From an uncultured Methanosarcinales archaeon (GTDB lineage Archaea; Nanobdellota; Nanobdellia; Woesearchaeales; ARS49): 44,988 nt of DNA. Below the pieces are notes generated by a model. The model was given only the letters and a program-made list of their open reading frames with translations, was not told the origin of the DNA and made no database searches. Where the stretch lies: NCBI GenBank assembly GCA_964640255.1, contig CAZXEZ010000001.1:1-44988 (forward strand), written 5' to 3'. Below are positions 8,595 through 38,485 of this stretch, piece by piece; position 1 is the first letter of the stretch, and every line of letters begins with the position of its first letter. Made by a program: the position numbers and the translations under genes.

Positions 8595-8615
8595 GATTCT
8601 CACCGACTCAAAAAA

Positions 8616-9229: not shown

Positions 9230-9230
9230 T

Positions 9231-9413: not shown

Positions 9414-9422
9414 AGTGACTAT

Positions 9423-9613: not shown

Positions 9614-9626
9614 AAACGGTTCCGCC

Positions 9627-9658: not shown

Positions 9659-9673
9659 TATTTCTCAAAAAGA

Positions 9674-9681
9674 TTTATATA
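9674..9681 (+). promoter_or_regulatory. TATA box TTTATATA upstream of hisS
   Basis: 26 nt upstream of the ATG at 9707. An AGGTGA Shine-Dalgarno sequence lies at 9695..9700. Confidence 0.45.
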
Positions 9682-9706
9682 TACTAATGAATGCAGGTGA
9701 ATTAAA

Positions 9707-10966: not shown

Positions 10967-11009
10967 AGTAAAGAAAAGCTTAAATATTCCTTATGTATTC
11001 TACTAAAAT

Positions 11010-11378: not shown

Positions 11379-11411
11379 GTTTTTAAAACAAATATACTTC
11401 TTTGAGAAAAC

Positions 11412-15033: not shown

Positions 15034-16237
15034 CCCTTCCTAAAAACAAGATATTTCCACTATTTCTCTCCTGAATCAAGAAAATGAATGGGTGGTCTGC
15101 ACGGAAAGTCTTGGTCATCGGCATTGCAGACAGCGTCATGTCCACTCCTGTTGCAGCAGCTGCCTCTGTGCCTTCTTCATTCACCTCAACAAAAGCCTGA
15201 TGAACAACTATGCCTATAAAGAGTTCTTTTTTGCCATTCATTCCAGAGAAATCAGCACCCATTGAGAATGCTGTAGGCATACCCATGTTTGCTAAAATGT
15301 CTGAAAGAGAATACTTTGTCTCAAAAGTGAACTTAGGGATGTAGACATCCAAAGTTTCATGCCTTAAAGCGCCTCTCCACGCCCCAAGATCGTCTGCGCT
15401 TATTGTTCTTTCAAGTTCTGTCAAATCATTATCTTTAGGAAGCAGGACTAAAATAGACAGCTCTTCACCGTCATAAGGCATCTCTAGAATCTGCATTTTA
15501 TCGTCTTCATAATAATTGAATTCTTCCTCATGCATGCTCATCATAGGAACCTGAATTGTTTTTTCAGGGTTAATCCTAAAATCAGCATCAAAAGTGTCGC
15601 TTTTCTCAAACTGCTTTAACCAAGTCCCCTTGAAATAAATTGCATTAGTAAGCACTAGCCTTGTCATGTCAGTCAAAACACCCTTTTCAAAAAGGTTTTT
15701 TATCTTATCATTAGTGTGATCCTCAACCCAATCATTGATTGCTGTTCTTGCCTGCTCTGTATTGCCGATAAAATCAACATTAGTTGCTTTTCCAGCATAA
15801 TATTTTTCCACAAGATTTAGGTATTCCGGCAAAAATGGATAATCTTTCTGCGCCCACAGAGCATTTGCAGTGAATAATTGATATTTCTTGTCTTTCTTGT
15901 TGATATCATTGAACAATTTTGCAAAAGAAGAGTGTCTTACTTCTGCATCAGGGAGGTGCATTGCATTCTTCATCTCGTCAGCTGTCTGACCCCTGGCGCC
16001 TTCATAAGTCATTGACAAGGCACTAGCCAAGCTCCAGGGAGATATGAAAACATTGCCTGGCTCTTGGCTTACTGCAGAATAAATATCCAAGCCAAACTGG
16101 TTGTTTGCCTTTACAAGCTCATTGATACCTTCTTCAGTTGTGCCAGTATCGTCTGTTATTGGAATCTCAATCTGGGGCGCGCACCCAAGCAAAAGCATGC
16201 TTAAGATGAGCAATGGAACAATGATTTTTGATTTCAT
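15017..16237 (-). CDS. serpin-family protease inhibitor, secreted/lipid-anchored
   Basis: SPWSLASALSMTYEGARGQTADEM and the C-terminal FRADHPFIFLIQERNSGNILFLGRVIDPS serpin signature. Signal peptide with LLLGC. Confidence 0.9.
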   Translation of the reverse strand: MKSKIIVPLLILSMLLLGCAPQIEIPITDDTGTTEEGINELVKANNQFGLDIYSAVSQEPGNVFISPWSLASALSMTYEGARGQTADEMKNAMHLPDAEVRHSSFAKLFNDINKKDKKYQLFTANALWAQKDYPFLPEYLNLVEKYYAGKATNVDFIGNTEQARTAINDWVEDHTNDKIKNLFEKGVLTDMTRLVLTNAIYFKGTWLKQFEKSDTFDADFRINPEKTIQVPMMSMHEEEFNYYEDDKMQILEMPYDGEELSILVLLPKDNDLTELERTISADDLGAWRGALRHETLDVYIPKFTFETKYSLSDILANMGMPTAFSMGADFSGMNGKKELFIGIVVHQAFVEVNEEGTEAAAATGVDMTLSAMPMTKTFRADHPFIFLIQERNSGNILFLGRVIDPS

Positions 16238-20918: not shown

Positions 20919-21983
20919 TCAAAGAGTTTCTATGCCCAACTCCTCATTAAAGTGCTTAGCTTGAGGGCTAGACCGGGTTGGGTCTGCTTTTCCAAGTATC
21001 CATGGTGACTGGACTCCTGTAACTATTGTCATAACCAAAAGCTTTCCCTTCATCTCTTCAGAGACTCTTGCTCCCCAGATTACGTTAGCGTCGTCATCCA
21101 TGCTCTCTGTGACCATCTCTCCTGCCCTGTTTATCTCATCCAAAGTTAAGTCTGGGCCTCCGCATATCTGAATCAATGCTCCTGTTGCCCCTTTGTAGCT
21201 GATGTCCAACAATGGGTTGCTTAATGCGCCTTTAACAGCTTCATCAACCCTGTTGTTTGTGTCAGAGCTGCCCACTCCAATAGCTGCAACTCCTCCATTT
21301 GTCATGATAGCTTTTACGTCTGCATAGTCCAGGTTAACCAAGCTTGGAACTGCGATTGTCTCGACAATTCCTTTTATCATGGTTGAAATCAGCTCATTTG
21401 CCACTGCAAATGCCTGTTGTACTGGCAAGTTGCCTGCAATGCAAACTAGCCTATTATTGTCAATAACGATAACTGTATCACAGACCTCTCTTAATTGCTG
21501 CAATCCAAATTCAGCCTTATCAATCCTTGCCCTCTCAATATTAAAAGGCATTGTCACTGTTCCAATAACAATTGCGCCCATCTCTTTAGCAACTGAAGCA
21601 ATAACTGGAGCAGCTCCTGTACCTGTGCCGCCTCCTTGTCCTGCACAGACAAATACCATGTCTGTGTTACGAAGAGACTCTTTTATCTGCAGCATGCTTT
21701 CCTGAGCAGCTTCTGCTCCTCTCTGCGGGTATCCGCCACAACCCAGCCCGCGTGTTAAATCGCGACCGATCAAGAACTTTCGATCTGCTGAAGAAATATC
21801 AATATGTTGCTTGTCTGTATTCACAGCGACGATTTCTGCCCCGCGAATACCTTTCTTGTATAACCAAGAAACCATGTTGTTACCAGCACCACCGACGCCA
21901 ATAACCTTAATATTTGCCTGTCCAAAATCAGCCTCTTGCTGGGCTGGTTCCTGCGCCATTGCGCTCTTTACAATAAAATCCAT
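20919..21983 (-). CDS. ftsZ: cell division GTPase FtsZ
   Basis: GVGGAGNNMV and the GGGTGTGAAPVIA tubulin signature. Start set at MDFIV, which has a GGAGGT SD sequence 9 nt upstream. The ORF track extends to 22022. Confidence 0.95.
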   Translation of the reverse strand: MDFIVKSAMAQEPAQQEADFGQANIKVIGVGGAGNNMVSWLYKKGIRGAEIVAVNTDKQHIDISSADRKFLIGRDLTRGLGCGGYPQRGAEAAQESMLQIKESLRNTDMVFVCAGQGGGTGTGAAPVIASVAKEMGAIVIGTVTMPFNIERARIDKAEFGLQQLREVCDTVIVIDNNRLVCIAGNLPVQQAFAVANELISTMIKGIVETIAVPSLVNLDYADVKAIMTNGGVAAIGVGSSDTNNRVDEAVKGALSNPLLDISYKGATGALIQICGGPDLTLDEINRAGEMVTESMDDDANVIWGARVSEEMKGKLLVMTIVTGVQSPWILGKADPTRSSPQAKHFNEELGIETL

Positions 21984-22382
21984 TTTCACTCGAACCTCCA
22001 CTTTGTGTCTTTGATTGTTCAAAAAGCATATCTCTTACTTTAGTGAGAGATTGTCTGGTTTATGCTGCCATTGGTTTTTGAACATTAAAAATGTCCTGTA
22101 TTTCAGTACGGGAATTTTTTATTTGTATGAAAGGGAAAAAAAGGCTCTCCAGGGTTTGTGGGTTTGGGGGGTGGTCTGTTTAGAGAAACAGTGGAGAGCC
22201 TTTGTTTCAGCATGACCATTTCTCAATCTTAGTATCCTAATATCATATTTTTGTATACTGATATAAACAATTACCAATTCATATATAAATGTTTCTATAT
22301 TTTTATATACTGGTGGCTATATGTCGGGATTTTCTATGACAGTATAGAAATCACAACATTTATATAGGGAATATTATTCTCT

Positions 22383-22823
22383 GTGAAATTAGGGGAGTGG
22401 TATAGAGAAAAGTGTGAGAGCATGGTAATCTTATTTGATCGGTTTAATTTATCGTCGGACATCTTTGAAATAATCTTTTCTACTGAGCAGCAGAAGATAG
22501 TCGCAAAAGAACTGATCAAATTTACCATCGAGAATACTGGAGAGATTACCAAGACACAGATGAGTTTTTTTGCAACGCAATTACATGATGGCAAGTACGA
22601 ATGTGTCTTAGATTCCGGAGTGCACAAGGGCAAGAAGGCAAAACTGAGCTACAACAAAAGACAATTCTACGACAGGATATTAACGCCGATGAAATCAATG
22701 GGCTTGATTGATTATGATCTTTACAAGAAAACGTACAAGATTTCTGATAAATTCTCAAATGACATGATGAAGATAGGCCTGATGTGGAAAGCTGAGTTAA
22801 GGAAGTTTGGTGTTAAGATATAA
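22383..22823 (+). CDS. hypothetical protein, probable winged-helix C-terminus
   Basis: 146 aa with GTG start. Its last 100 nt are duplicated at 23572..23671. Confidence 0.55.
   Translation: MKLGEWYREKCESMVILFDRFNLSSDIFEIIFSTEQQKIVAKELIKFTIENTGEITKTQMSFFATQLHDGKYECVLDSGVHKGKKAKLSYNKRQFYDRILTPMKSMGLIDYDLYKKTYKISDKFSNDMMKIGLMWKAELRKFGVKI
22720..22819 (+). repeat. 100-nt direct repeat, copy 1 (3' end of the 146-aa gene)
   Basis: 98/100 identical to 23572..23671. Both mismatches are synonymous third positions. Confidence 0.9.
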
Positions 22824-23153
22824 ATGACCAGCCCGCACGATAAACTGCTATACCAAGTTTCAGGGGCCATTTCCCGCATTTTTGATTTGTCATTTCTTAA
22901 AACAGCAGGATATGGGTCGAATCCTAGAAATATAGAGGATACTCTTGAGATAGACATGCTTGGCCAAAAAGGCAACATACTTTATGTATTCGAGGTAAAA
23001 ACAAACGAGAATGATACCTCTGAAGCGATAACACAGTTAAAAAACAGGCATTTAGGACTGAATTTGAACAAGGATAATATAGTCAATAAACAGAAGCAGC
23101 TGCCGCATTATGACTACATAAAATTGTTCATAGTGACTCCAAAGAATGTGTAG
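22824..23153 (+). CDS. small PD-(D/E)XK-like nuclease-fold protein
   Basis: EIDMLGQKGNILYVFEVKT fits D...(D/E)xK. The ATG directly follows the upstream TAA. Confidence 0.45.
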   Translation: MTSPHDKLLYQVSGAISRIFDLSFLKTAGYGSNPRNIEDTLEIDMLGQKGNILYVFEVKTNENDTSEAITQLKNRHLGLNLNKDNIVNKQKQLPHYDYIKLFIVTPKNV

Positions 23154-23263
23154 GAGATAAATGAAAAAGGCAGCCTTTTAAACAGGTGGCAGCTAGATAA
23201 AGTCATGAAAACCCCAGAAATAATCCAATAAGTTTAAATAGTTTAAAGACAGTAAAGAATAAC

Positions 23264-23569
23264 ATGAAATATCAAATCACAACCAAAAATAGAAAAGATT
23301 TTTTGGCATTACAGAACATATTAGATGATACCCTAAAAAATGGTGTTGTTGAAAGAACGATTCGTGGTGGTTTAATAACTCAGAACCAGGATAGTGCAAA
23401 AGTCACATATACTGGCCCAAACGTGTCTGCATATTTTGAGTTTGATAAGGTAAACGGCACATATGCTGGTGCTCTGGTTGTTGAGAAGGCACCAGAAGAG
23501 GCAGCAAATAAATTAGCTGCTAGAATAAAGAAAGAATTGCCTGCCCTAAAACCAGAAACTAAATCTTAG
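23264..23569 (+). CDS. hypothetical protein
   Basis: 101-aa ORF with a TTTAAATA box about 30 nt upstream. Confidence 0.5.
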   Translation: MKYQITTKNRKDFLALQNILDDTLKNGVVERTIRGGLITQNQDSAKVTYTGPNVSAYFEFDKVNGTYAGALVVEKAPEEAANKLAARIKKELPALKPETKS

Positions 23570-23571
23570 TT

Positions 23572-23671
23572 TTTACAAGAAAACATACAAGATTTCTGAT
23601 AAATTCTCAAATGACATGATGAAGATAGGCCTGATGTGGAAAGCTGAGTTAAGGAAGTTTGGGGTTAAGAT
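23572..23671 (+). repeat. 100-nt direct repeat, copy 2 (orphan gene 3' end)
   Basis: Encodes ...YKKTYKISDKFSNDMMKIGLMWKAELRKFGVKI followed by a stop, but has no 5' gene body. Confidence 0.9.
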
Positions 23672-23719
23672 TTAATATATTTCAAAAGGTTTAAATAGTT
23701 TCTTCACTAAGGATATTTT

Positions 23720-23956
23720 ATGGCAAAGATTCTTGAATCTGAATTAAGAGAAGAAAAAGTAAAACAAGCAGTAGACTTGTATTATGCTAGATTTGGTACT
23801 GAGGAGAGTGTTACTGTAAACGAAGCTGCGGCAAAATATGACATAAAAGGAATAGAAATTCATATGTATATTGCTGCAAGAACAGATGATGGTTTAGGAA
23901 TGCCTGAAACTCATGCAGAAGCAAAGAAATATCGTATTAATTTAATGCAATTATGA
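23720..23956 (+). CDS. hypothetical small protein
   Basis: 78-aa ORF with a TTTAAATA box about 25 nt upstream. Confidence 0.5.
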   Translation: MAKILESELREEKVKQAVDLYYARFGTEESVTVNEAAAKYDIKGIEIHMYIAARTDDGLGMPETHAEAKKYRINLMQL

Positions 23957-24446
23957 TAGTTTTCTAATTAATTCTTGTACATATGGCCGCCTAAAATTTA
24001 CTGCCAACAATTCATTCAAATATTTCAAAGAATCCTTTCTCGCAAACATTCCTTTTTCTTCTGCAATTTCGTATAAGTTTGCAATATCTCTTACTTGTCC
24101 GTGTCTGCCTAACTTGACTTCAGCCTCTTTATTAGCAAACAACATCTCATCTGCATCACTATAAAACTTGTGCGTGATCAATACTTCTATATCTGCCACA
24201 TCAGCTAATTCAAGTTTCTGAGACCACCTGCTGACTAATTTATCAAATCGCCTTTTTTCTTGTATAACCGCAGGAGGAATAATGAAATTATTTTGAACGA
24301 ATGTTTGATCTACTTGGAGAAATGTGACGATTTCACTAAGCGTTCCTGGAGACGTATAAACAGCATCGTATAAATCCCTAATTAAGTACAGTCTCCCAAT
24401 TTTGTCTAGCCATATTGCGGGGGGATGTATTAGATACGACTTTCAT
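23951..24446 (-). pseudogene. COG2405-type PIN-domain gene interrupted by a frameshift at a G6/C6 run
   Basis: The ATG at 24446 gives MKVVSNTSP, then a stop after 22 codons. The adjacent frame continues PAIWLDKIGRLYLIRDLYDAVYTSPGTLSEI...IIPPAVIQE... down to 23951. The frames switch at 24419..24424. Confidence 0.65.
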
Positions 24447-24470
24447 TTTATTAATTTAAAAGAATCAAAG

Positions 24471-24480
24471 TATTTAAAGA
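24471..24480 (-). promoter_or_regulatory. TATA box (TCTTTAAATA on minus strand)
   Basis: 25-34 nt upstream of the ATG at 24446. Confidence 0.45.
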
Positions 24481-24506
24481 TTATTATTTTTATTATTTAT
24501 GGGTGG

Positions 24507-24584
24507 TTATTTAGTCAAAACTTCTACCTTATCTGTAATCAACAGAGTATGTTCTGCCTGAGAGACCATTCCTTTGTTTTTCTC
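24507..24584 (-). repeat. orphan copy 'a' of the map gene 3' end (78 nt)
   Basis: Aligns with 28425..28499 of the live map gene, from the stop codon inward. Confidence 0.85.
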
Positions 24585-24664
24585 TGGTTAAACAAAAATT
24601 AACCACTATTAAGTGATTAAAAAACCAAAGATTTAAATACTCACGAATATTAACATGTAGCACC

Positions 24665-25435
24665 ATGAGCAAAGATGAATCAGTGGAATTTCAAACAAAG
24701 GAATTTCAAGAGGGTGAATTTAGACAAGTAATTGAAAGGTCTAAAGAATTGATAGCCAGAGGGTATTTTACCGGAATAAATTTTCTGCAATCAGAGGAGC
24801 CCCTGCCGACAAATTCAATAATCGTCCACTTTCTTCACGACAGCGAACAACATTTGGATGAAATCATATCCGCCGTGCCTGCTGCGCGTTTGGTAGTCCC
24901 TAGATTCACGTGCTACATGCTAAATCCTAAATATTTTCAAAAGCCCAATTTTGCTGAAGAATACCGAGATGTAGTTTTTTTCGATTCTAACTTTAATATA
25001 ATCACAGTTGAGGAGGCGATTGCAAAACCTTTGGGCGTGACAGTACTTAACCGAGAGTTGGATTTAATAGTCCCGCTTCACGGCAGTAAAGATTTATACG
25101 ATACTGTGCAAGCTTTGCAAGAGGCAGACAAAGAAGGCCCTTATCAGTGGATAGATCCGGTTCTTATTGTGAAAACAAAAACGCCTGTTACTGCTCTAGA
25201 AGGTTTTGTTGACAAACAGTATATTAGTATTGCAAAAGAAAGAGAAGAGTTTTATTCAATCTTAACCGACGAGGAAAGAACTGATGCCCTATCGAATTAT
25301 TTAGATAAATTGTGTGCAGCCACAAAAATAGGAACATTACAAAGAAGTGACGTTGTTTTCAATGCAAGCCAAGTAAACAAAAAGTTTGCAGATTTCTTAG
25401 TTAATATTCAGAACCAGCTTCGAATTCTTGAATAG
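24665..25435 (+). CDS. hypothetical protein
   Basis: 256-aa ORF with a TTTAAATA box about 25 nt upstream. No family recognised. Confidence 0.55.
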   Translation: MSKDESVEFQTKEFQEGEFRQVIERSKELIARGYFTGINFLQSEEPLPTNSIIVHFLHDSEQHLDEIISAVPAARLVVPRFTCYMLNPKYFQKPNFAEEYRDVVFFDSNFNIITVEEAIAKPLGVTVLNRELDLIVPLHGSKDLYDTVQALQEADKEGPYQWIDPVLIVKTKTPVTALEGFVDKQYISIAKEREEFYSILTDEERTDALSNYLDKLCAATKIGTLQRSDVVFNASQVNKKFADFLVNIQNQLRILE

Positions 25436-25718
25436 TTTCTCGCAATCTTTGTTTAGAATAAACACCTGTAAGTTTTTGAGAGCCTCCACCACGCACACCT
25501 TTTTCAAACGCCTCTTGTAATAGATTAACAACACCATTTTTATGTATGCGGCACTTATATTCTATTTCTCCCCAACCATATCGCCATTCACTAATACATC
25601 CGTCATCAGGTAATTCTGCAAGAACTTCAATTAATTTTGGTAGATTCTCCTGACTAATACAATCTAAACCTTCTATTTCTGGGTCTTCTGATGCTTTTCG
25701 CAATGTTTCTACTAACAT
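25401..25718 (-). CDS. hypothetical protein
   Basis: 105-aa ORF, convergent with and overlapping the 256-aa gene by 35 nt. Confidence 0.45.
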   Translation of the reverse strand: MLVETLRKASEDPEIEGLDCISQENLPKLIEVLAELPDDGCISEWRYGWGEIEYKCRIHKNGVVNLLQEAFEKGVRGGGSQKLTGVYSKQRLRETIQEFEAGSEY

Positions 25719-25790
25719 TTTCCTATGAATTATATGTCTCTAGAAGTATATAAATCTTTTGAAATAAATCTAGTAATATACGTAAAATAA

Positions 25791-26000
25791 CTAAATCTTA
25801 ATCAAAACTTCTACTTTATCTGTAATCAACAGAGTATGTTCTGCCTGTGAGACTATCCCTTTGTTTTTCTCGACTAAAGGAGGGAATTGCTTGATAATAT
25901 TGTTTTTCAGGAGTTCTCTCAATGCAAAATTAGTCTTGCCCAGGCCGAACTTTTTTGAGAGCCATCTTGTTGTGAATGGTAATGTCTTGTAGTTTTCGCC
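25791..26000 (-). pseudogene. orphan copy 'b' of the map gene 3' end (210 nt, 69 codons plus stop)
   Basis: Encodes GENYKTLPFTTRWLSKKFGLGKTNFALRELLKNNIIKQFPPLVEKNKGIVSQAEHTLLITDKVEVLIKI, colinear with the Map C-terminus. There is no gene body upstream. Confidence 0.9.
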
Positions 26001-27388
26001 TATGTCTGCGTTTCCCCAAAGCTTCAAAATCAGCTGAAATCCAATTCTTCTTCACTTAGCTGTTTTTGAACACTTCAAAACTGTTTCGTCATTTTCGAGT
26101 TTTAGAGCTTGTAGCCCTGAAATTCGAGCATTTCAGAGTTTTTACTCTCTAGTAAGTTTATGACGCTTTTTAGAAAATCCATCATAACTACTCCTTAATG
26201 ACGAAACCTTTATAAAGGATTACTGCCTTTAGCAAATCATTACCTTTAGAGGGGCGGAAAAATGACTGAAAACAAAAAAGAATCAGAAAATGAAGTAAGG
26301 CGCAGAGTATATCTTAAAAAGGCAATACAAGACTTTACTGAAGCAATTAGATTAAACCCAAAATATGATCAATATTATGTGAATCGCGGGATTGTTTATT
26401 CTAATCCACATGTTCGCGAGGTTATACAATATCTTAATCAGAATGGTCTAAGAGCAGAATTAAAAGACTCTGCACTTCAGGGAGATGATGTTGACATTCT
26501 TGCAACAGGAAGCCTTGAGGACATAACAGAAGTGACCTGTGCATTAAATGGAGCCAAGGATATTGCAGATCCATTCTACAGCACAGCTAGAGACAGTGAA
26601 GATTACACTGTTGTGCATGAAGGTGAAAATGTTGCTTACATGCGCGAGAATCTTGCACAGCTGTTCAAGATACTTGTCGGCGACACAAAAATTCATGTCG
26701 GATTGAAAACAAAGCCAAGTATTGATTAATTTTTTTTATTTCATATGCCTTGAAAAAGAGACCCTAAAATGCCGATGACAAAAACATTATGCGGAGTTCT
26801 GCACGATGAGGCAGACAAAGAGGAGATACAGCAAGTTCTAGATCTGATAGATAATACAAATCCCGCGAAAGTAGGATTAGAGATTACCAATAAATATGCA
26901 GAAACCAATCACTGCCCTGAATTTTTTGATAGGATACATGATTATGCAAGGACAAATGGAAGAAGGATAGTTCCTTTAGAGCACCAGCTTGCTCATGAAA
27001 AATACAGCATAGTAAACGCAGTTGTGCTGGTGCTTGAAGACAAGTTATCAAGGGAAAACCTTGAATTTTTGCTGCAGTACACTACAATTGAATTAAAAAA
27101 GAGATTCGCCTTAAAATCTTCACAAATACGCGCACTTGAAGAGAATCAAAAAACAACCAAACATGCACTCAAGCTGCTTGATAGTAATCCAACAAAAGAG
27201 GAAGCTATCAAATGGTATGAAGAAGCAGAAACTGAAAGAGAAAAACACATGTTAAACAGGATTCTGCGGCATAATCCAGATCTTGTTATTATTGGGGTCA
27301 AGCATGCAGAAGCAATAAAAGACAACCTGCAGGAGTATCAGTATATTTGCCTTGCAAAAAGAGATGCAGAAGGTATTTTTGAATCATA
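26001..27388. mobile_element. putative inserted cassette II (two genes)
   Basis: Bounded by map 3'-end fragments b and c. Confidence 0.45.
26262..26729 (+). CDS. hypothetical protein with one TPR-like repeat
   Basis: AIQDFTEAIRLNPKYDQYYVNRGIVY. TTTATAAA box upstream. Confidence 0.5.
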   Translation: MTENKKESENEVRRRVYLKKAIQDFTEAIRLNPKYDQYYVNRGIVYSNPHVREVIQYLNQNGLRAELKDSALQGDDVDILATGSLEDITEVTCALNGAKDIADPFYSTARDSEDYTVVHEGENVAYMRENLAQLFKILVGDTKIHVGLKTKPSID

Positions 27389-27389
27389 A
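26769..27389 (+). CDS. hypothetical protein
   Basis: 206-aa ORF. The stop abuts map fragment c. Confidence 0.5.
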   Translation: MPMTKTLCGVLHDEADKEEIQQVLDLIDNTNPAKVGLEITNKYAETNHCPEFFDRIHDYARTNGRRIVPLEHQLAHEKYSIVNAVVLVLEDKLSRENLEFLLQYTTIELKKRFALKSSQIRALEENQKTTKHALKLLDSNPTKEEAIKWYEEAETEREKHMLNRILRHNPDLVIIGVKHAEAIKDNLQEYQYICLAKRDAEGIFES

Positions 27390-27439
27390 TTTAGTTATTA
27401 CTTCCACCTTATCTGTAATCAACAGAGTATGTTCTGCCT
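27389..27439 (-). repeat. orphan copy 'c' of the map gene 3' end (about 51 nt)
   Basis: CTTCCACCTTATCTGTAATCAACAGAGTATGTTCTGCCT aligns with the live gene end. Contains a 5-nt diverged patch. Confidence 0.75.
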
Positions 27440-27862
27440 TTACTCCTCGACTAATGACGTTAAGAACTGGATAATCTTTGTTATTTCTTCCTTGTTTTTC
27501 TCATAAAAAGAGATATCAACTGCTTCACCGTAATAATGTAACAGGTTTCTTAAATAACTCATTTCTGAAATAAAATTAGCTTCAAACTCATTATCTGAAT
27601 GCTTTCGGTAAAAATAAGAGATAAGACATTGATGATTCTTTGATTTCAAGCCATGTTTTAGCAATAATGCCACAAGCAATTCCTTGATAATCTCATAATA
27701 ACCCTCAATGATAAAAGAAACATTATCTTGATTAACTTGCTGGATGTCAACAAATTTTCTTCTTTTAATGACTGTATCCAATATGGAACTGATCTTTTCC
27801 TTGTCAGGAGTCACAGTTCTGATAAATTGCCGCCTGCATTCGCCCCAATCCATCAAATTCAT
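27440..27862 (-). CDS. HEPN-domain protein (toxin candidate)
   Basis: 140-aa helical protein. YLRNLLHYYG resembles an R-x(n)-H HEPN motif. 4-nt overlap with the upstream nucleotidyltransferase gene. Confidence 0.55.
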   Translation of the reverse strand: MNLMDWGECRRQFIRTVTPDKEKISSILDTVIKRRKFVDIQQVNQDNVSFIIEGYYEIIKELLVALLLKHGLKSKNHQCLISYFYRKHSDNEFEANFISEMSYLRNLLHYYGEAVDISFYEKNKEEITKIIQFLTSLVEE

Positions 27863-28365
27863 CTTATTTTAAAAAACCCCGTAATCCTGATTCCGTTAAC
27901 CACATTATTAAATAAGTTGTCTGGCAAATTATTGATACTCTGTTCAGTAAAAAGCTGGATTTTGTGGCCCAATATCTTCTCAAATTTGGCCAAGTCCAAA
28001 TCCTGTTTCTTTAAGGCTTCAACAAACAAGTCAACATCACTTTCTTTAGCTGATTCGCCTTTCCTGAAACTGCCAAAAAGAATTATGCAGGACGGTCTTA
28101 ATTTCTCTGTTAAATACTCTATCAAACCGCTTTCAAATAACTCCTTAATATAAAAAAAGGTCTTTTCCGTTTTAAACAAAGCAGTACTGACTGCCTCGTT
28201 TTCTTTATTTACTCTTCTGCTTTTTTTAAGCTCTCTTAAATATTTATGAACAGTTGATTTTGGAATCCTTGTCTTTTTGGCTAGTTCCCGAACTGTAAAC
28301 TGCTTCTCAGGATACTCGTAAAAAATCCTTAGAATTTTGTCCAAATTATTGTACTTTAGTCCCAT
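27859..28365 (-). CDS. wHTH plus minimal nucleotidyltransferase (MNT, antitoxin candidate)
   Basis: LFGSFRKGESAKESDVDLFV fits GS...G....SD.DL. N-terminal FTVRELAKKTRIPKSTVHKYLRELK is an HTH. Confidence 0.7.
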   Translation of the reverse strand: MGLKYNNLDKILRIFYEYPEKQFTVRELAKKTRIPKSTVHKYLRELKKSRRVNKENEAVSTALFKTEKTFFYIKELFESGLIEYLTEKLRPSCIILFGSFRKGESAKESDVDLFVEALKKQDLDLAKFEKILGHKIQLFTEQSINNLPDNLFNNVVNGIRITGFFKIR

Positions 28366-28421
28366 TTTATGTCCTTAAGTCCCAATAAATGGATTAACTA
28401 TTTAAATGTTGTGCTTTTTCC

Positions 28422-29330
28422 TTAAGATTTAGTCAAAACTTCTACCTTATCTGTAATCAATAAAGTGTGCTCTGCCTGAGAGACTATCCCTTTGTTTTTC
28501 TCGACTAAAGGAGGGAATTGCTTGATAATGTTGTTTTTCAGGAGTTCTCTCAATGCAAAATTAGTCTTGCCTAAGCCGAATTTAGAGGATAACCATCTTG
28601 TTGTGAAAGGCAAGGTCTTGTAGTTCTCGCCGACAAACTTAAGTATTTCCCTGGCAAAAGGGCTTCTGACAGGCTTTGGGTTTGTGAGCATGAAGATGTT
28701 AGCTCTCTCTGACTCGTATATCATTCCTGCACCATCAGTTGCAAAAGGCTCGATAGCAATGCACATATTCTCCTCTATTTCAGTGTCATCGCCAGTGTCA
28801 AAATTAGGGATTGTTGGATCTGTGTGGATATCGTAATAATCCAATCCATGGCCGCTTAAATTCTTTATAGGCGAGAAACCATGACTAGAGATAGTCTCTT
28901 GGATGGTCTTTCCAATCTCTCCTAAAGTTGTTCCAATCTGAACAATCTTGATTGCATTATTCAGGGCCTCTCTAGAGGCTTTTACCAAATCAGAATATTT
29001 TCCGCTCAGATCAACTGTAAGAGCATTGTCTCCTATTGCTCCTTCAAAACAGGCACCAACATCCAGGCAGGCAACCTGATCCTCAAACACAATCTTATCG
29101 TCTGGATCTGCACAATAATGCGCAGCAATATGGTCGCAGGAAATCTGTGCAGGAAAAGCAGGTATTGCACCCAAGTCTACAATCTTTTTCTCTATCAAAT
29201 CAGAGACCTCTAGCAGAGTTGCGCCTTTCTTTATTAATCCTCCACCGTATTCAAGGGCCTGCGCTGCAATCTTCCCGGCTTTTTTCCATTTCTCTATGTC
29301 TTCTGGAGTTAACTCTGTTTCTTCTTCCAT
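28422..29330 (-). CDS. map: type 2 (archaeal) methionine aminopeptidase
   Basis: Pita-bread fold motifs (AHYCADPDD, LDVGA, HGL, IAIEPFAT) and the C-terminal winged-helix insert typical of MetAP2-type enzymes. Confidence 0.9.
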   Translation of the reverse strand: MEEETELTPEDIEKWKKAGKIAAQALEYGGGLIKKGATLLEVSDLIEKKIVDLGAIPAFPAQISCDHIAAHYCADPDDKIVFEDQVACLDVGACFEGAIGDNALTVDLSGKYSDLVKASREALNNAIKIVQIGTTLGEIGKTIQETISSHGFSPIKNLSGHGLDYYDIHTDPTIPNFDTGDDTEIEENMCIAIEPFATDGAGMIYESERANIFMLTNPKPVRSPFAREILKFVGENYKTLPFTTRWLSSKFGLGKTNFALRELLKNNIIKQFPPLVEKNKGIVSQAEHTLLITDKVEVLTKS

Positions 29331-29449
29331 AGGTAGTGGAGAATTACAATGTCTTTATATTTGTTGCGGTAAGTAGAACTAGAGAAAACTAATGATAAAT
29401 TCCACGATTTGTATTGCGATGTTGATTGATGTCATTTTAGTCTCGCTTT

Positions 29450-30487: not shown

Positions 30488-31639
30488 ATGAACATATCCA
30501 ACATTCTAATGATAGGCTTCTTAATAGCACTCAGCCTGACTATATTGATCTTTAGAAAGAGATTTGTTTTCCAGAGCTTTGGGAAAATATTTTATTTCGG
30601 AATGTACAAGACAAAAGTAGGGCTGAAGCTGATGGACAGATGGTCTAAAAAATACCCAAGAATATTGACGAGGCTGTGCTATCTGTCAATAGTGATTGGA
30701 TTCTTGGGAATGATACTGGTAGTATTTGACCTGATAAAATCAGGATACCAGATATTGACTGGAACAAGCACATTATCAGTCGGACTGGTATTGCCTGTTC
30801 AGGCAAAAGGAGTGTTTTATGTCCCATTTATTTATTGGATAATCGCAATAGCAGTCATCGTTGTCATACACGAGTTTTCACATGGATTGATAGCAAGACT
30901 GCATAAAATAAAAGTAAGGAGCTCTGGAGTTGCATTCTTAGGAATCATTATACCATTAATACCTGCAGCATTTGTAGAGCCAGATGAAAAACAATTAAGA
31001 AAAGCATCCAGGTTCAAGCAATTAAGTGTCTATGCAGCAGGACCATTTGCAAACATTGTCTTTGGATTTCTATTCTTAGGAATATTTGCACTGATACTAA
31101 ACCCATTTGCAGCCTCTTTATACAATTTTGAGGGCGTAAAAGTAAATGATTTTATGGGTGCTGAAAGTCCTGCAGAGATAAGCGGCATGGCAACAGGAGA
31201 GATAATAACAGAGATAAATGATGCTGAGATAAAGAATACAGAGGATTTTCTTAAATCAATAGAAGATGCAGAGCCAGGAGATGTTGCAGAGATAAAGACC
31301 ACAGAAAAAAGTTATTCTGTTTTATTAGAGGAAGATCCAGCTGAGAAAGATGCATTCTTAGGAGTTTGGGTATCAACAGAGAAGACAATGAAAGACAAAA
31401 GTTTATTCTCTTATTTCATAATCTGGGTGACTGACTTGTTCTACTGGTTATTTTTATTGAACTTAGGAGTGGGGTTGTTTAACCTGGTTCCAATCGGGCC
31501 TATTGACGGTGGAAGAATGCTCCAGACAGTGCTTGAAAAAGTGATGCCTAATAAACGTGCAACAAGAGTGTGGCACACTGTGAGTGTTGTTGTGTTGATG
31601 ATTATCGTCAGTAATATTATTTATGCTTTTGTCGCTTAA
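30488..31639 (+). CDS. site-2 protease (M50 family) with PDZ-like insert
   Basis: HEFSHGLIA (HExxH) and NLVPIGPIDGGRM (NxxPxxxxDG). Multiple TM helices. Confidence 0.9.
   Translation: MNISNILMIGFLIALSLTILIFRKRFVFQSFGKIFYFGMYKTKVGLKLMDRWSKKYPRILTRLCYLSIVIGFLGMILVVFDLIKSGYQILTGTSTLSVGLVLPVQAKGVFYVPFIYWIIAIAVIVVIHEFSHGLIARLHKIKVRSSGVAFLGIIIPLIPAAFVEPDEKQLRKASRFKQLSVYAAGPFANIVFGFLFLGIFALILNPFAASLYNFEGVKVNDFMGAESPAEISGMATGEIITEINDAEIKNTEDFLKSIEDAEPGDVAEIKTTEKSYSVLLEEDPAEKDAFLGVWVSTEKTMKDKSLFSYFIIWVTDLFYWLFLLNLGVGLFNLVPIGPIDGGRMLQTVLEKVMPNKRATRVWHTVSVVVLMIIVSNIIYAFVA
31609..31637 (+). repeat. 29-nt direct repeat, copy 1 (last codons of the S2P gene)
   Basis: CAGTAATATTATTTATGCTTTTGTCGCTT, identical to 31764..31792. 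Confidence 0.9.
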
Positions 31640-31758
31640 GCGCGATATTGTGAAGGCGAGAGAAGAGTTGAACCCCTGTTTGCGAAGCAAACAGCTGACA
31701 GAATGCTTCTCGAGCCTGAACAAAGAGCGCCCTTTGATCCTAACTTTTTCAAAGTTAG
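31640..31758 (-). repeat. 119-nt structured repeat, copy C
   Basis: The reverse complement aligns end to end with copies A and B. It forms the core of the 126-nt insert 31638..31763. Confidence 0.8.
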
Positions 31759-31763
31759 ATTGA

Positions 31764-31792
31764 CAGTAATATTATTTATGCTTTTGTCGCTT
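31764..31792 (+). repeat. 29-nt direct repeat, copy 2
   Basis: Identical to the S2P gene end. Here it is followed by GA, giving the presumed ancestral TGA stop. Confidence 0.9.
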
Positions 31793-31865
31793 GAGTTCTC
31801 TTTCATAACATTTATATACAAGATGTTTCTATTCCCTAGTAACTTACTAGAGAAAGGTGATTTAA

Positions 31866-34009: not shown

Positions 34010-37000
34010 ATGAAAAGAACAATAATACTTGCAGCAATTCTAATTATAGGTGTTTTACTTATTTCCAGCTGCAAGCCAGCTGGAAGAGCAATAGCACAGC
34101 CAGATGTCACTGGAAGAGACCTTGATAATTTTCCTAGTAACCTGTTTCACGAATTTGACCTAGAACAGATGCCAATACCAGTAAAGATATACACAGATCT
34201 TGCTTTTGCAAACATTGCAAATCAACTAGTGGCAGAGATAGAAGTAAAGATGTGCGAAGGCATGCAAACAAATGGAGAGGGCTGTTCATATACTTTTGAA
34301 CCAGACTTTATTGATTCAATAGATAATATTCCAAGATTCATCGCAATAGGAACCTGTGATGATGAAACAATAAGCTCTTTGCTTGATGACAGCACTTGTG
34401 AAGACCTCGTAGAGCATAAGGCACTTATACAATATGTTGAGACAGGACAATTAGTGATAGCAGGAGGAACAGAAGCTGACGCAATAGCTGCTGTTGATAC
34501 ATTAATGGCTTACTTAAACGAAGGAGTGTATCTGAATGGATATTATTCAGACATAATAAACACAGAAAATCTCATCGCAGCAAGCCACATAACCCCAACA
34601 AACGAAGTAAAATACACTGCACAATTCATGTTTAAAGAAGGAACAAACGTAATAATGAGTCCTCTAGAGATTCCTTATGATAAAGAGACTGTGACTGCAT
34701 TCTTTGGAGCTAATATAGACAAGATAAACAAGATATATCTTTATGATACTGATGCAGGAGCATACATGGGTGTCTATAACCCAGATACAGACGTGCCAAG
34801 CAACATAGTTAATTTTGCAGAAAGAGATTATTTATATGTAGTAGATGCAAAAGAAGACTTTGATATAACTGTATTCGGGGCAGAACCACCTGCTGCAAGC
34901 TTGGCAGGGTATTACAACGTGCCTTTAGATACAAAAAAAGTACTAAATGCATTCATAACAGGAGCAGCTGTCAACTCAATAACAGGAGGAGCAGTTGCAG
35001 GGCAGGTATATGCAACAGACCCGCTTTATCAATGCAGAAGAACATCACCTGTATCACAAGTACACGATTATTATGTATCTTTGGTGTATCCTTGTCCTGT
35101 AGATGATACATTAGGCATCTTAGGAAGAGTGTATAGCTACTCAGAACCACAACCAGCAAATACAGTATTATTAAAATACTGCTACTGGCCACATCACGAC
35201 GACCACTTACTTGCAATAAATGTGTGTGACCCAGACACACAAGACCAAGCAGACACACCAAACCTAGGCTATGTTTATGCAACAAAACCAACAGGCATTG
35301 ATACAATTCCATTGTATAGATGTATATTTACCAGCAACGGAGAACATTTCCAAACAAGCATAAACCCTTGTCCAGATGGCAGTGACCAAGAAGGAGTGTG
35401 GTACATGCTTCCATTCTGCAGTGAAACAGACCAAGGAAAAGACCTATTTACAAAAGGAACGACAACAGGACTGATAGAACAGTATCCTAAAACAGAAATA
35501 GATACTTGCGTTGGTACGACAAGAGTAGAAGAAGCATACTGTGACAGCGAAACTCTTCCTCATGGAGTGAAAGAAGAATTACTAGACTGCCCAAGCGAAA
35601 CCACGTGCCAAGAAGGAGAATGTGTCTGGACCGGGGAAGAAGAAGCCTGGATGTGGGCGTGCAGGGATGATTCTAATGTTGGTGACTTGGTATATGATCA
35701 CTATGTAACAGCCCCAACAGGACAATATGAATATAAAAACGCATGCGGAACAGCAGACCTAACACAAAGAATCATAGGAAAAGTATTCAAAGTGCCAAAA
35801 CAAGACACGCAAAAACTAACACTCTGCGAAGACTACACAAACAATAATGACAGAGAAGTCATCCTGGGAGACTGCCCACCAGGAACAGACATATTAAAAG
35901 AAATAGGATTTGTCTATATAACTCCACAAGAAGGAACAATACCTGCAACAAAATGCAAATTCACAGCAAATAATGAAAAATTTGTGATAAATGGAAACGG
36001 CTGCCCTTCAGGAGCAGACAAACTATTCACATTCTATGTAATGCCATTCTGCACAATAAGTGAAGACAACACAGAACCAGGAATAACAGAATCAGAATTG
36101 TACATAGGTACCAAAGACTCTGTATTCAGCCTAGTAGACGGAGACAAAACATGGTATGATGAATGCACAAACGGAAAACTAAGGCAATATTACCGCGACC
36201 CAACAAACCTTGAAGGCAACATAGGGATTGCTTCAAAAGAAGAAGACTGCCCAACAGACACGATATGCGAAGATGGCAAGTGCAAAGGACAGATAACAAA
36301 ACTATTATACCGCTGTTATAACATTCAGCACTGGAGCGGCTCACCAACATTACTTGATCATTATGTATCATTTGACCCTAATTGTGAAGGAAATAATGTA
36401 GACGGCCCAATAGGCCACATATATCAAGAAGAGTTCTGGAAAGCTGAACCAAACCTGGAAACAGCATACCAGTGCCATAGACAAACAAGACATCACAGCC
36501 ACACATGGACAGATCATTTCTTATCAAAAGATGCAAATTGTGAAGGACAAAACGTTGATTCCTTAGTTGGATATCTGCCATCAAGCTCATCTGACAAGAC
36601 AACAACATACTACAGATGCTTAGGAACAGAGGCCAAGGGTGGATTTGACCACTTGATATCATCAAGAATAGGATGCGAAGGATATGTAAATGAAGAACTA
36701 GAGTTTTACTTCCTAAAAGAACCAGTAACTACAGTAGAAGGTGCACCAGAACCATCAGCAGAGCCAGCAAACCTGACAATAACAAAAACAGGACCTGCAA
36801 CAGCAGATGCAGGAGAAATAATAGAGTATGAAATACAAATCACAAATCCCACAGAAAACATGATATATTTCACATTAACTGAAAAGATTCCAGACTACAC
36901 AACATACATAAGCAACAGCAGGGACTGGGTTCCAACAGAAGAGACAGACACAGAAGTTGCTTGGGAGATGGGCATCCCAGGAAAAGATGGATACAGCGTG

Positions 37001-38485
37001 GACATACGCCTAAAATCAGACGAAAACACAACAAACGGAACAATAATCACAAATGAAATTGAAATTGAATTTAACACAAAAAATAAAAGTGCAACAGCAG
37101 AGACAGAAATACAGTCATCAATAACAGGACCAGAATGCGGAAATGGAATAATAGAAGCAGGAGAGGAATGTGATGACGGTAATTTAAACAGCGATACTAT
37201 GCCAGATGCCTGCAGAACAGATTGCAAACTTCCAAGCTGCGGTGATTCTGTTGTTGATACAGGAGAGGAATGTGATCCTCCAGATGGAATAACATGCGAT
37301 GCAAACTGCATGAACATAACACCACCACTACCGCCAGGAGTGCCACCATTAGTCCCACCACCAACACCACCACCTACATTACCACCATTCCCACACCAAT
37401 TTTATGGAAATGTGATAAATGGCGTGGCAGCCATGCCAATACAGGCAACACTTGGGGCAATAAACTTCAATACAGCAGTAGACACAAACATACAATATGG
37501 TTACACACCAATATTCCTAATAACAGGAACAACAGACGGAGCATTAATCTCATTTTATGTCAATAATTCATTTGATCAAACATACGCATTTCAGCAAGGC
37601 GCCTTGACACAATTAGACCTAACATATACTGCAGGAGGAGCACCTCCAACAGGACCAACATGCACAGACGGAATACAAAACCAAGATGAAACAGACGTGG
37701 ACTGCGGAGGAACAGTGTGCCCTAAATGTGATAAAAACGAGAATTGCACTAAAAATTCAGATTGTAAAACAAATTATTGCAAGAATGGAGTGTGCAAAGC
37801 AAGGCCAAGGCCAAGAGTTAGCGGAGGCGGTGGAGGAGGCAGAGGAAGATACGTCACTGCTGCACAAGATCTGTATGGAATGCCTCAGCAAGCAGAAACA
37901 GCCTGCTATGATGACTGGATATGCGACCCATGGAGCCCATGCTTAGATGGAATACAGACAAGAGAGTGCTTCTTGAATGATTATCCTGAATGCTTACTAG
38001 AGATGCCTAAACCAGAGACAACACAGTCCTGTGTAATGCCAGAACCAGAATATGTTCCGCCTGCAGCACCAACATGCTTTGACGGCATACAAAACCAAGA
38101 TGAAACATTCCCAGACTGCGGAGGAAGCATGTGCAAGCCATGTGATCCAAACCTTCCATGTAGAATTGACAGGGACTGCGTAACAAATTATTGCGACCCT
38201 ATAGCACAGATGTGCAGTTATCCATCAATTGTAGAGACTCCAAAACCACCAAGCAGATGGTGGATCTGGCTGATAGTAGCCTTGGCAGCAATAGGAGTAA
38301 TTGGAGGAACAATAGCAGCAATAGTACTCTTAAGAAAAAAAGAAGAACTCCCGAACCACAGGCTAAAAGACCTCCGGGAATACGTGGAAAAATACAAGAA
38401 AAAAGGCGTTTCTACTGAAAAAATACGAAAGAAAGTTCTAGAGCATGGCTGGAAAAAAGAAGCAGTAGAAAAGGTTTTAAAATAG
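34010..38485 (+). CDS. giant (1491 aa) multidomain cell-surface protein, C-terminally membrane anchored
   Basis: Signal peptide with LLISSC. Nine Cys-containing Y(R/Q)C...DH(Y/F/L)(V/L/I)S-type repeats. DUF11-like LTITKTGPA domain. CGNGIIEAGEECDDGN Cys-rich repeats and a Pro-rich linker. Two C.DGIQNQDET..DCGG..C..C modules, a TM helix and a basic tail. Confidence 0.9.
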   Translation: MKRTIILAAILIIGVLLISSCKPAGRAIAQPDVTGRDLDNFPSNLFHEFDLEQMPIPVKIYTDLAFANIANQLVAEIEVKMCEGMQTNGEGCSYTFEPDFIDSIDNIPRFIAIGTCDDETISSLLDDSTCEDLVEHKALIQYVETGQLVIAGGTEADAIAAVDTLMAYLNEGVYLNGYYSDIINTENLIAASHITPTNEVKYTAQFMFKEGTNVIMSPLEIPYDKETVTAFFGANIDKINKIYLYDTDAGAYMGVYNPDTDVPSNIVNFAERDYLYVVDAKEDFDITVFGAEPPAASLAGYYNVPLDTKKVLNAFITGAAVNSITGGAVAGQVYATDPLYQCRRTSPVSQVHDYYVSLVYPCPVDDTLGILGRVYSYSEPQPANTVLLKYCYWPHHDDHLLAINVCDPDTQDQADTPNLGYVYATKPTGIDTIPLYRCIFTSNGEHFQTSINPCPDGSDQEGVWYMLPFCSETDQGKDLFTKGTTTGLIEQYPKTEIDTCVGTTRVEEAYCDSETLPHGVKEELLDCPSETTCQEGECVWTGEEEAWMWACRDDSNVGDLVYDHYVTAPTGQYEYKNACGTADLTQRIIGKVFKVPKQDTQKLTLCEDYTNNNDREVILGDCPPGTDILKEIGFVYITPQEGTIPATKCKFTANNEKFVINGNGCPSGADKLFTFYVMPFCTISEDNTEPGITESELYIGTKDSVFSLVDGDKTWYDECTNGKLRQYYRDPTNLEGNIGIASKEEDCPTDTICEDGKCKGQITKLLYRCYNIQHWSGSPTLLDHYVSFDPNCEGNNVDGPIGHIYQEEFWKAEPNLETAYQCHRQTRHHSHTWTDHFLSKDANCEGQNVDSLVGYLPSSSSDKTTTYYRCLGTEAKGGFDHLISSRIGCEGYVNEELEFYFLKEPVTTVEGAPEPSAEPANLTITKTGPATADAGEIIEYEIQITNPTENMIYFTLTEKIPDYTTYISNSRDWVPTEETDTEVAWEMGIPGKDGYSVDIRLKSDENTTNGTIITNEIEIEFNTKNKSATAETEIQSSITGPECGNGIIEAGEECDDGNLNSDTMPDACRTDCKLPSCGDSVVDTGEECDPPDGITCDANCMNITPPLPPGVPPLVPPPTPPPTLPPFPHQFYGNVINGVAAMPIQATLGAINFNTAVDTNIQYGYTPIFLITGTTDGALISFYVNNSFDQTYAFQQGALTQLDLTYTAGGAPPTGPTCTDGIQNQDETDVDCGGTVCPKCDKNENCTKNSDCKTNYCKNGVCKARPRPRVSGGGGGGRGRYVTAAQDLYGMPQQAETACYDDWICDPWSPCLDGIQTRECFLNDYPECLLEMPKPETTQSCVMPEPEYVPPAAPTCFDGIQNQDETFPDCGGSMCKPCDPNLPCRIDRDCVTNYCDPIAQMCSYPSIVETPKPPSRWWIWLIVALAAIGVIGGTIAAIVLLRKKEELPNHRLKDLREYVEKYKKKGVSTEKIRKKVLEHGWKKEAVEKVLK

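Follow-up and report, generated by a model that had tools for sequence, protein, structure and literature searches.

The systems closest to the locus described here add accessory DNA beside a conserved anchor. Arrays of orphan effector-immunity modules of the type VI secretion system (T6SS) in Vibrio cholerae are attributed to homologous and homology-facilitated illegitimate recombination (PMC5361080), and displacement of C-termini in Rhs and contact-dependent inhibition (CDI) loci is recounted in the same source (Jackson et al. 2009, as cited in PMC5361080). Cis-mobilizable elements (CIMEs) accrete in tandem with integrative conjugative or mobilizable elements (ICEs, IMEs) at the 3′ end of a target gene (PMC5704250). 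Archaea also harbour arrays of integrated elements, and 14 of 68 thaumarchaeal integrated mobile genetic elements (iMGEs) are inserted 3′-distally in protein genes (PMC6563490). Prochlorococcus genomes carry tycheposon islands (10.1101/2020.12.28.424599). Here we describe an islet of five small gene cassettes that separates map, the methionine aminopeptidase gene, from a convergent gene of 146 amino acids (aa). It lies in a 44,988-nucleotide (nt) stretch of a Woesearchaeota genome (contig CAZXEZ010000001.1, assembly GCA_964640255.1), called the window below. Genome coverage in this analysis comprises this 45-kb window and, for the relatives (loci L001 onwards), up to 20 kb around each one's site.

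DPANN archaea, to which Woesearchaeota belong, have very small, densely packed genomes, and to our knowledge how they gain and exchange accessory genes, the majority of which resemble genes for defence or toxin-antitoxin systems, is poorly understood. In the literature searched we found nothing alike from DPANN. The locus is a concrete and recurrent route for the exchange of cassettes between lineages whose core genes are synonymously saturated. Because each cassette brings a spare gene end with it, the two overlapping genes at which cassettes land are left undamaged.

As in the T6SS, Rhs and CDI arrays, acquired modules lie by a conserved anchor, and older ones have been displaced downstream with retained pieces of the anchor ahead of them; those arrays involve no recombinase and are reshuffled by ordinary homologous recombination, as may also be the case here. 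In those systems, however, the anchor is a toxin gene whose variable C-terminus is swapped while the immunity genes are retained. In the map islet the anchors are housekeeping or otherwise unrelated genes, the duplicates are intact ends of open reading frames (ORFs) with the same conserved C-terminus, the cargo is unrelated to the anchor, and stacking, in a DPANN host, proceeds from each of the two convergent genes. With accreted CIMEs the islet shares direct repeats that contain the 3′ end of the target, a restored target gene, tandem elements without an integrase and an empty site in relatives. CIMEs differ in being decayed ICEs or IMEs of several kilobases that rely on a related element with an integrase at that site, whereas the units here are ~1 kb long, show no integrase or element backbone, and carry cassette-specific repeats of 37-210 nt that evolve with the host copy.

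Tycheposon islands likewise occur in streamlined hosts, next to a conserved neighbour gene, with partial anchor copies among the cargo modules. What defines a tycheposon is a tyrosine recombinase together with a tRNA anchor, whereas in the window protein-coding genes are the anchors and the ORFs scanned include no recombinase; only the tRNA-Lys array of one related contig (L016) is tycheposon-like in form. Chromosomal integrons also hold ordered small cassettes, toxin-antitoxin pairs among them, with end repeats of variable length and addition by a fixed site. Integron cassettes are mostly promoterless, co-oriented and expressed from the promoter Pc, in contrast to the cassettes of the window, which have their own promoters and occur in both orientations; the repeats here are gene ends and not attC hairpins, and intI was not found at the locus. 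The islet does not have the make-up of a transposon or casposon either, as its repeats of 37-210 nt are cassette-specific, repeat finding in the window reported no terminal inverted repeats, and neither a transposase nor Cas1 was found in the window ORFs scanned. Should homologous recombination alone suffice to build it, the islet would be the minimal equivalent, free of any recombinase, of integrons and tycheposon islands; with a hidden recombinase at work, it would represent a new archaeal cassette system.

Anatomy of the islet

The two anchors are map (28422..29330, minus strand; 302 aa; Pfam Peptidase_M24, E 1e-31) and the 146-aa gene (22383..22823, plus strand), a convergent gene with a weak match to transcriptional regulators. 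The closest map genes share 85-89% aa identity and come from metagenome-assembled genomes (MAGs) of Woesearchaeota (DPANN) and from marine and sediment metagenome contigs. In all related loci the 146-aa gene adjoins FtsZ, which lies at 20919-22022 in the window. One relative, L001 (WJJT01000027), has an empty site: map (6786-7697, plus) meets the convergent 146-aa gene (7687-8127, minus) directly, with an overlap of 11 nt, and FtsZ follows. Since the flanking 146-aa gene and FtsZ of the window are the same as in L001, the whole of 22824-28421 is inserted DNA. We conclude that the ancestral state is a tail-to-tail overlap of the two genes by 11 nt and that 22824-28421 represents an additive genomic islet flanked by a convergent pair of core genes in a Woesearchaeota genome.

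The islet is punctuated by copies of the ends of its anchors. Using the last 210 nt of map (28422-28631, minus) as the reference copy, repeat finding and blastn recovered four map 3′ ends, all co-oriented on the minus strand. Besides the live end, which stops with TAA, there are orphans at 25791-26000 (203-210 nt, 90% identity to the live end, E 6e-75, stop TAG), at 24507-24584 (76-78 nt, 92% identity, E 1e-26, stop TAA) and at 27389-27439 (51 nt, 84% identity, E 2e-10, stop TGA), the last of which begins right behind the stop codon of a HEPN-like gene. All four copies are in the map reading frame and each has its own stop. A second repeat, whose reference copy is the last 104 nt of the 146-aa gene (22720-22823, plus), recurs at 23572-23675 (plus) as a 104-nt orphan end that is 97% identical and has its own stop (repeat finding, tblastn).

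Five cassettes of ~0.75-1.4 kb, usually with two genes each, make up the islet, and their order from map is A-B-C-E-[146 fragment]-D. Cassettes A (27440..28421), B (26001..27388) and C (24585..25790) are the blocks delimited by map copies, of 982, 1388 and 1206 nt, respectively, with two ORFs and TATA-like boxes in each. Cassette E (23676..24506, 831 nt) is the innermost, and cassette D (22824..23571, 748 nt) is inserted at the end of the 146-aa gene.

The locus had been singled out in an earlier note, made by a model from the sequence alone, and its account of the map side stood: the positions and common orientation of the four map ends were recovered in full, and so were three two-gene blocks of 1.0-1.4 kb. 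What it missed is the 104-nt duplicate of the 146-aa gene end and, with it, cassettes E and D, so that the array consists of five cassettes built from both sides. Its hand count of 14 synonymous codons in the 210-nt fragment came close. That copy differs from the live end at 25 nt, 17 of them in third positions, which amounts to 15 synonymous sense codons plus the stop as against three non-synonymous changes (S16K, T67I, S69I). The resulting values (dN 0.041, dS 0.545, ratio 0.076; NG86) bear out the view that the fragment diverged as a functional map allele. The orphans also have variants in common (CAGAACATACTCTGTTG) where the live gene reads CAGAGCACACTTTATTG, again as the note had read them. 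Whichever mechanism applies, orphan in-frame gene ends with mainly synonymous differences provide a simple signature by which flexible islands and mobile cargo can be sought in uncultivated archaea.

One other explanation for co-oriented repeats 1.0-1.6 kb apart is that map, or the map end together with its downstream gene, was duplicated in tandem in place and then decayed, or that the array is an assembly chimera. Some orphans do decay: the A fragment of L003 has changed from AEHT to AECI, and that of L026 has acquired an in-frame TAG. This explanation is nonetheless effectively excluded. A check for remnants of whole-map duplication found nothing of the map gene body between the copies, the cassette proteins bear no relation to one another, cassette dS is far below flank dS (see below), and the dN/dS of the 210-nt copy is 0.08. 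The tail-to-fragment junctions recur in the assemblies of other samples (L003, L009, L024, L026 and L027), and an independent contig from the Joint Genome Institute (L013) is 100% identical over the head of cassette C, the 210-nt copy and cassette B. Because the junctions recur in independent assemblies and L013 is identical across them, assembly chimerism is not credible. An origin of the cassettes as paralogues by tandem duplication was also rejected, as the 256-, 285-, 226- and 251-aa proteins have no BLASTP similarity to one another.

Mobility, displacement and cargo of the cassettes

Comparisons of synonymous divergence between the window and L003 or L009 separate the cassettes from their flanks. 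For the core genes, dS against L003 and L009 was 3.0 and 4.4 for map, 2.2 and 1.8 for FtsZ, and 2.2 and 1.7 for the 146-aa gene; against L003 it was also 1.8 for an M50 peptidase gene and 1.05 for a 237-aa gene. Cassette genes gave 0.35 (nucleotidyltransferase gene of A), 0.19-0.25 (HEPN-like gene of A), 0.29 (105-aa gene of C), 0.34 (256-aa gene of C) and 0.35 (155-aa gene of B). Core genes are thus saturated at synonymous sites in these pairs, and cassette genes are 5-10 times less diverged. In sliding windows, identity is 55-78% in the map end, goes up to 90-98% precisely where the cassette head begins and drops again at the fragment behind. The low cassette dS relative to the flanks, together with the sharp change of identity at the borders, identifies the cassettes as horizontally mobile units.

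At the map site, relatives hold from 0 to 6 or more cassettes, which are common to several loci and occur in differing order. Behind map, L002 and L007 have a single 122-aa gene without repeats and L008 has an E-like gene. L026 reads A-E, L024 and L025 have A followed by two small genes, and L009 reads X-A. The longest arrangement, in L003 and L010, is A-X-C-B′, then a cassette with 123- and 251-aa genes and then a frameshifted gene like the 122-aa one. L027 and L028 read ...C-A-..., with 94% nt identity to the cassettes of the window. The comparison of related map loci that the earlier note had proposed therefore yields states with 0, 1, 2 and 6 or more cassettes.

At its distal end, each cassette repeats the final 51-210 nt of the anchor gene. 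Because the cassette carries this copy, its insertion leaves a complete live gene in front and an orphan behind the cassette, and successive insertions have stacked cassettes and pushed older ends inwards at both anchors. In L009 the innermost orphan retains the 11-nt overlap with the 146-aa gene, which shows that the original map end was left in place. In L026, E lies directly between the fragment of A and the live end of the 146-aa gene; since E there touches the live end, D of the window entered at the 146-aa gene and left the old end on E. The island grows from both anchors, with the 146-aa side mirroring the map side. Repeated insertion of foreign DNA that displaces older ends, as first read from the window, is borne out by the series from empty site to arrays of six or more, the differing orders, the low cassette dS and the innermost orphan of L009. 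A deletion at 10885-10903 in L003 took the normal last codon and stop of map, and the ORF reads 5 codons into the head of cassette A.

Where its function can be recognised, the cargo is of toxin-antitoxin or defence type. Cassettes have their own TATA-like boxes and genes on both strands. Cassette A (minus strand, own TATA-like box) encodes a 168-aa winged helix-turn-helix nucleotidyltransferase (MNT; 27859-28365, minus) and a 140-aa HEPN-like protein (27440-27862, minus). The MNT is above the Pfam cut-offs (NTP_transf_2, 32.3 bits vs 21; Polbeta, 33.7 vs 26.9), the HEPN match is weak (17.2 bits vs a cut-off of 22, E 0.006), and PADLOC matched PDC-M05A and PDC-S09. We regard the two as a putative toxin-antitoxin-type pair whose HEPN member is assigned by a weak, sub-cut-off match. 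Cassette A stands behind map at six other loci; an exact-sequence look-up of the MNT protein of the window returned no record. Cassette B (plus strand) encodes a 155-aa TPR-like protein (26262-26729, plus; TPR_11, E 4.5e-5, below cut-off), with a homologue in the L003 array, and a 206-aa protein (26769-27389, plus), whose homologues (64% aa identity) in L001 and L002 are encoded upstream of map.

Cassette C (mixed strands, with a promoter by the fragment that follows) has two convergent, overlapping genes, of 105 aa (25401-25718, minus) and 256 aa (24665-25435, plus). It shares 91% nt identity (dS ~0.3) with its counterpart in L003 and 94% nt identity with that in L027. The family of the 256-aa protein numbers only 17, each of them from Woesearchaeota or Nanoarchaeota and always with a small convergent partner gene; its AlphaFold model has a mean confidence (pLDDT) of 86 and no structural neighbour in the PDB (E > 0.1). 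Cassette E (mixed strands) contains an 82-aa ORF (23951-24199, minus), apparently truncated because the gene at this place in L026 has 140 aa, and a 78-aa ORF (23720-23956, plus). Cassette D (plus strand), present in none of the relatives examined, encodes a 109-aa PD-(D/E)xK/YraN-like nuclease (22824-23153, plus; PADLOC CARF_PDDEXK, E 1e-5; NCBIfam YraN, E 5e-5, below cut-off) and a 101-aa protein (23264-23569, plus).

Gene-end fragments and the mode of insertion

How cassettes enter is constrained by the fragments that they carry. Fragment length varies between cassettes and is specific to each: 51-56 nt for A (six genomes), 78-87 nt for C (three genomes; 78 nt in the window, 87 nt in L003 and L027), 78-86 nt for X (two genomes) and 210 nt for B. 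The fragment of A has the same 5′ border in L003, L009, L024, L026 and L027/L028. Over the common 49 nt, fragments of the same cassette in different clades are 55-69% identical, whereas fragments of different cassettes in one genome or clade are 78-94% identical; this host-clade-specific sequence fits recombination or conversion with resident copies. Past a conserved ACTAAR, the last codon and stop are linked to the downstream cassette head: CTTTGA precedes A in L027 and L009, TAACC precedes E both in the window, where C comes before, and in L026, where A does, and A[T/A]TTAG precedes C in L003 and the window. When sites diagnostic for clades were painted onto the orphans, their interiors (about -38 to -14 from the stop) were host-type and the 5′ edge of the C fragment of L003 was foreign-type, with 17 of 18 nt as in map of the window's clade; informative sites are few. 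The 5′ edge of the 78-nt copy in the window may likewise be foreign-type.

Two simple models fail on these data. Plain target-site duplication was rejected because a cassette keeps its fragment length in genomes with different neighbours, that is, at a fixed length per cassette in varied orders, and a single fixed crossover fails on the host-clade fragment sequence unless gene conversion is added. The same observations modify two claims of the earlier note. That an insert brings its own map end does not hold between distant lineages, where identity falls to host level right at the cassette borders and only the last codon and stop remain tied to the head of the cassette downstream; fragment lengths, described as not constant, vary between cassettes but are fixed for each (A, 51-56 nt; C and X, 78-87 nt).

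We give about an even chance to homologous recombination on portable gene-end repeats as the driver of sequential insertion and displacement, with its enzymology as a matter of inference. The repeated gene ends would offer portable homology for recombination of the RadA type. A circularised cassette with its gene end could integrate by a single crossover in the manner of Campbell, or linear DNA from the array of a relative could enter by an unequal double crossover; either route would yield a complete live gene, the cassette, and an orphan with the cassette's 5′ border and the host's 3′ part. Recombination between repeats would excise or reorder cassettes, and gene conversion would keep the repeats host-like. 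Conversion together with repeated exchange would erode donor sequence to the edges of homology and so leave sharp borders. New units of cassette plus fragment might arise by a rare illegitimate join inside a gene end, akin to homology-facilitated illegitimate recombination, and no dedicated recombinase would be needed. Because the anchors overlap, only insertions that duplicate a gene end leave both genes intact.

Several points weigh against this proposal. Three different cassette heads all join at one point, directly behind ACTAAR; a common 5′ border near -88 is possible for A, C and X; and in cassette A TTAGTCGAG stands directly before a 16-nt gap relative to map. Fixed borders of this kind are expected of a site-specific system, whereas homologous recombination can account for them only if linkage decays as far as the homology extends. 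For exchange between clades, a homologous stretch of 37-56 nt at ~80% identity is short. On this model every new unit requires an illegitimate event, several times over, and none was observed; nor was a circular or excised form observed in the assembled sequences used here. It is also possible that a recombinase acts in trans from elsewhere in the genome or from a virus or plasmid. The 3′ ends of tRNA genes, such as the anchor of the L016 array, are a classic integrase target.

These points lead to an alternative that we hold possible, if on balance doubtful. Cassettes would be integrase-less elements, like CIMEs or tycheposon satellites, mobilized by a tyrosine or serine recombinase acting in trans on a core in the last ~50 nt of map; other integrases would serve the other anchors, the gene end would act as attP, and tandem integration would push older elements inwards. 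Such accretion would account for direct repeats that equal the 3′ end of the target with the ORF always restored, the fixed junction after ACTAAR, the cassette-specific repeat length, the possible border near -88, and the empty site of a relative. The L016 tRNA-Lys array, in which four partial tRNA copies accompany a homologue of cassette C, points in the same direction. There are precedents in archaeal integration into 3′-distal parts of protein genes and in element arrays (PMC6563490), in the accretion of CIMEs at gene ends (PMC5704250) and in newcomers that push older elements into tycheposon islands (10.1101/2020.12.28.424599). The contrast that the earlier note drew with classical att sites was overstated in this respect, because integrase-less tandem accretion at gene 3′ ends is known from CIMEs, tycheposon islands and thaumarchaeal iMGEs, and arrays built by sequential displacement are known as well.

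What speaks against site-specific accretion is first the lack of machinery, and here the earlier note's statement that the window has no integrase or transposase was upheld. No integrase, transposase or Cas1 was detected by Pfam in the 40 window ORFs scanned (the larger ones and those of the island), and no integrase or transposase was detected by Pfam, PHROGs, NCBIfam or PADLOC in the scanned ORFs of the window and of the relatives' islands. Neither the cassette ORFs scanned in L003, L014 and L016 nor the gene annotations of the other loci contained an integrase or a remnant of one, and the neighbouring ORFs scanned by Pfam in L002 and L003 contained no integrase; thus none turned up in ~10 arrays or islands or among the scanned ORFs of the 45-kb window. 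The cassette proteins themselves were considered as recombinases and rejected, since searches of Pfam, PHROGs, NCBIfam, PADLOC and PDB sequences gave only the MNT, weak HEPN and weak TPR matches and the small PD-(D/E)xK/YraN-like nuclease. Nothing related was found in viral contigs, as IMG/VR had no match to a degenerate DNA pattern of the repeat core, the C-terminal peptide of map or the 256-aa protein, so that no viral or plasmid carrier emerged. In addition, at least five or six anchors would need as many specificities, the cassettes are uniformly tiny (0.75-1.4 kb) and have no decayed element backbone, and the repeats follow the host clade with identity dropping on both sides, for which one fixed crossover would need additional gene conversion.

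A palindrome in some cassettes raises a further alternative. Cassette C contains TAACCACTATTAAGTGATTA at 24600-24619, beside the fragment that follows it, and the form TAAYYACT-N4-AGTRRYTA is found there and at 13179-13198, 14463-14482, 15876-15895 and 17066-17085 of L003 and 792-811 of L027, just upstream of the TATA box in the tails of cassettes with unrelated cargo. It could be an operator or a recombination site. In an integron-like scheme with a novel recombinase, the palindrome TAATCACT-N4-AGTGATTA would be the counterpart of attC and the map end that of attI, the right arm of the palindrome mimicking the terminal octamer of map, TGACTAAR. Its presence at the tails of C, X and two more L003 cassettes with mutually unrelated cargo fits this scheme, as does the restriction of the exact palindrome to map-island cassettes (L003/L010, L027 and the window) and its absence from C homologues elsewhere. 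At 15876-15907 and 17066-17098 of L003 the palindrome also runs into ~9-13 nt of map-terminal sequence with no long fragment. We nevertheless consider the scheme quite improbable. Cassettes A, B, D and E lack the palindrome, its likeness to the map end covers just 7-13 nt, and similar palindromes upstream of C homologues (L017, L018) fit the operator of an autoregulated promoter. Single-strand DNA folding of repeats and tails gave no significant attC-like fold (z from +0.6 to -2.2) and no common hairpin spanning the repeat, cassettes have their own promoters and mixed orientations, and no integrase lies beside the array.

Other anchors and neighbouring features

The architecture of the map islet recurs at unrelated genes. 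In the window, a non-coding element of ~120 nt lies between two 37-nt copies of the M50 peptidase gene end (31604-31640 and 31759-31795); this insert is also present in L003, flanked there by repeats of L003's own allele, and L002 is empty at this site. In a Woesearchaeota MAG (L029; GCA_043819375.1, JBDREV010000131), 43 nt of the end of SpoIIM are repeated (4694-4736 and 5660-5702) on either side of a single Bro-N gene, and 6 of 6 differences are synonymous. A second MNT-type pair adjoins this SpoIIM/Bro-N site. In L016 (ERZ27293411, k141_635173; 4014-12434), four orphan 3′ copies of 33-49 nt behind a live tRNA-Lys(CTT) set off blocks of 1.2-3.8 kb, in an array that is cut short by the end of the contig. 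Among these blocks is a homologue of cassette C (244 and 105 aa), which has the opposite orientation relative to the anchor; no integrase is annotated in this array. Across ~230 kb of related DNA, gene-end repeats were prominent among direct repeats, mainly at the map, M50 and tRNA-Lys sites. That the 146-aa gene, M50, SpoIIM and tRNA-Lys anchors share this architecture speaks against a single specific att site.

The observed anchors comprise map, the 146-aa gene, M50 peptidase, SpoIIM, tRNA-Lys and possibly tRNA-His. We offer as a speculation, unlikely as it stands, that they belong to a general gene-capture system of DPANN archaea, integron-like in function and distinct in mechanism, in which gene 3′ ends would serve as attachment sites for cassettes of ~1 kb circulating between lineages. 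An unrecognised recombinase or homologous recombination alone would drive it, with the palindrome and the ACTAAR junction as recognition elements.

The ~120-nt non-coding element is present in three copies in the window, at 9303-9415 (plus), 9498-9615 (plus) and, in the opposite orientation, 31640-31758. It has a terminal hairpin (CCTAACTTT...AAGTTAGG), and two of its copies lie behind tRNA-His or tRNA-His-like genes. It matched no Rfam family, and Rfam gave two tRNA matches only for the window. The tandem at 9228-9663 consists of a tRNA-His-like copy without the 3′ acceptor strand (9232-9302), the element, an intact tRNA-His (9424-9494) and the element again, and closes with a short repeat of the tRNA end and terminator. 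An ARAGORN call of tRNA-Ser(gga) at 9266-9352, on the truncated tRNA-His-like copy, is probably spurious.

A second variable spot lies just upstream of map (~29372-29379 in the window; 3284-6744 in L001, 5703-9959 in L002 and 8768-10001 in L003). Relatives have 1.2-4.2 kb of extra genes there, including a homologue (64% aa identity) of the 206-aa gene of cassette B, and flanking repeats were not detected at this spot. A conserved mini-ORF of 18 codons is located there behind the 237-aa gene. In L014 (6565-9664), two-gene units of 1.3 and 1.75 kb are set off by promoter-like repeats of 41-59 nt that contain the palindrome GTATATACGTATATAC, and one of these units includes a homologue of the 256-aa protein; this cassette-like array has no gene-end repeats. 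Elsewhere in the window, a 1491-aa ORF with strong AT skew (34010-38485), probably a repetitive surface protein, contains diverged internal repeats at 37643-37738 and 38057-38152 and at 36356-36402 and 36512-36558.

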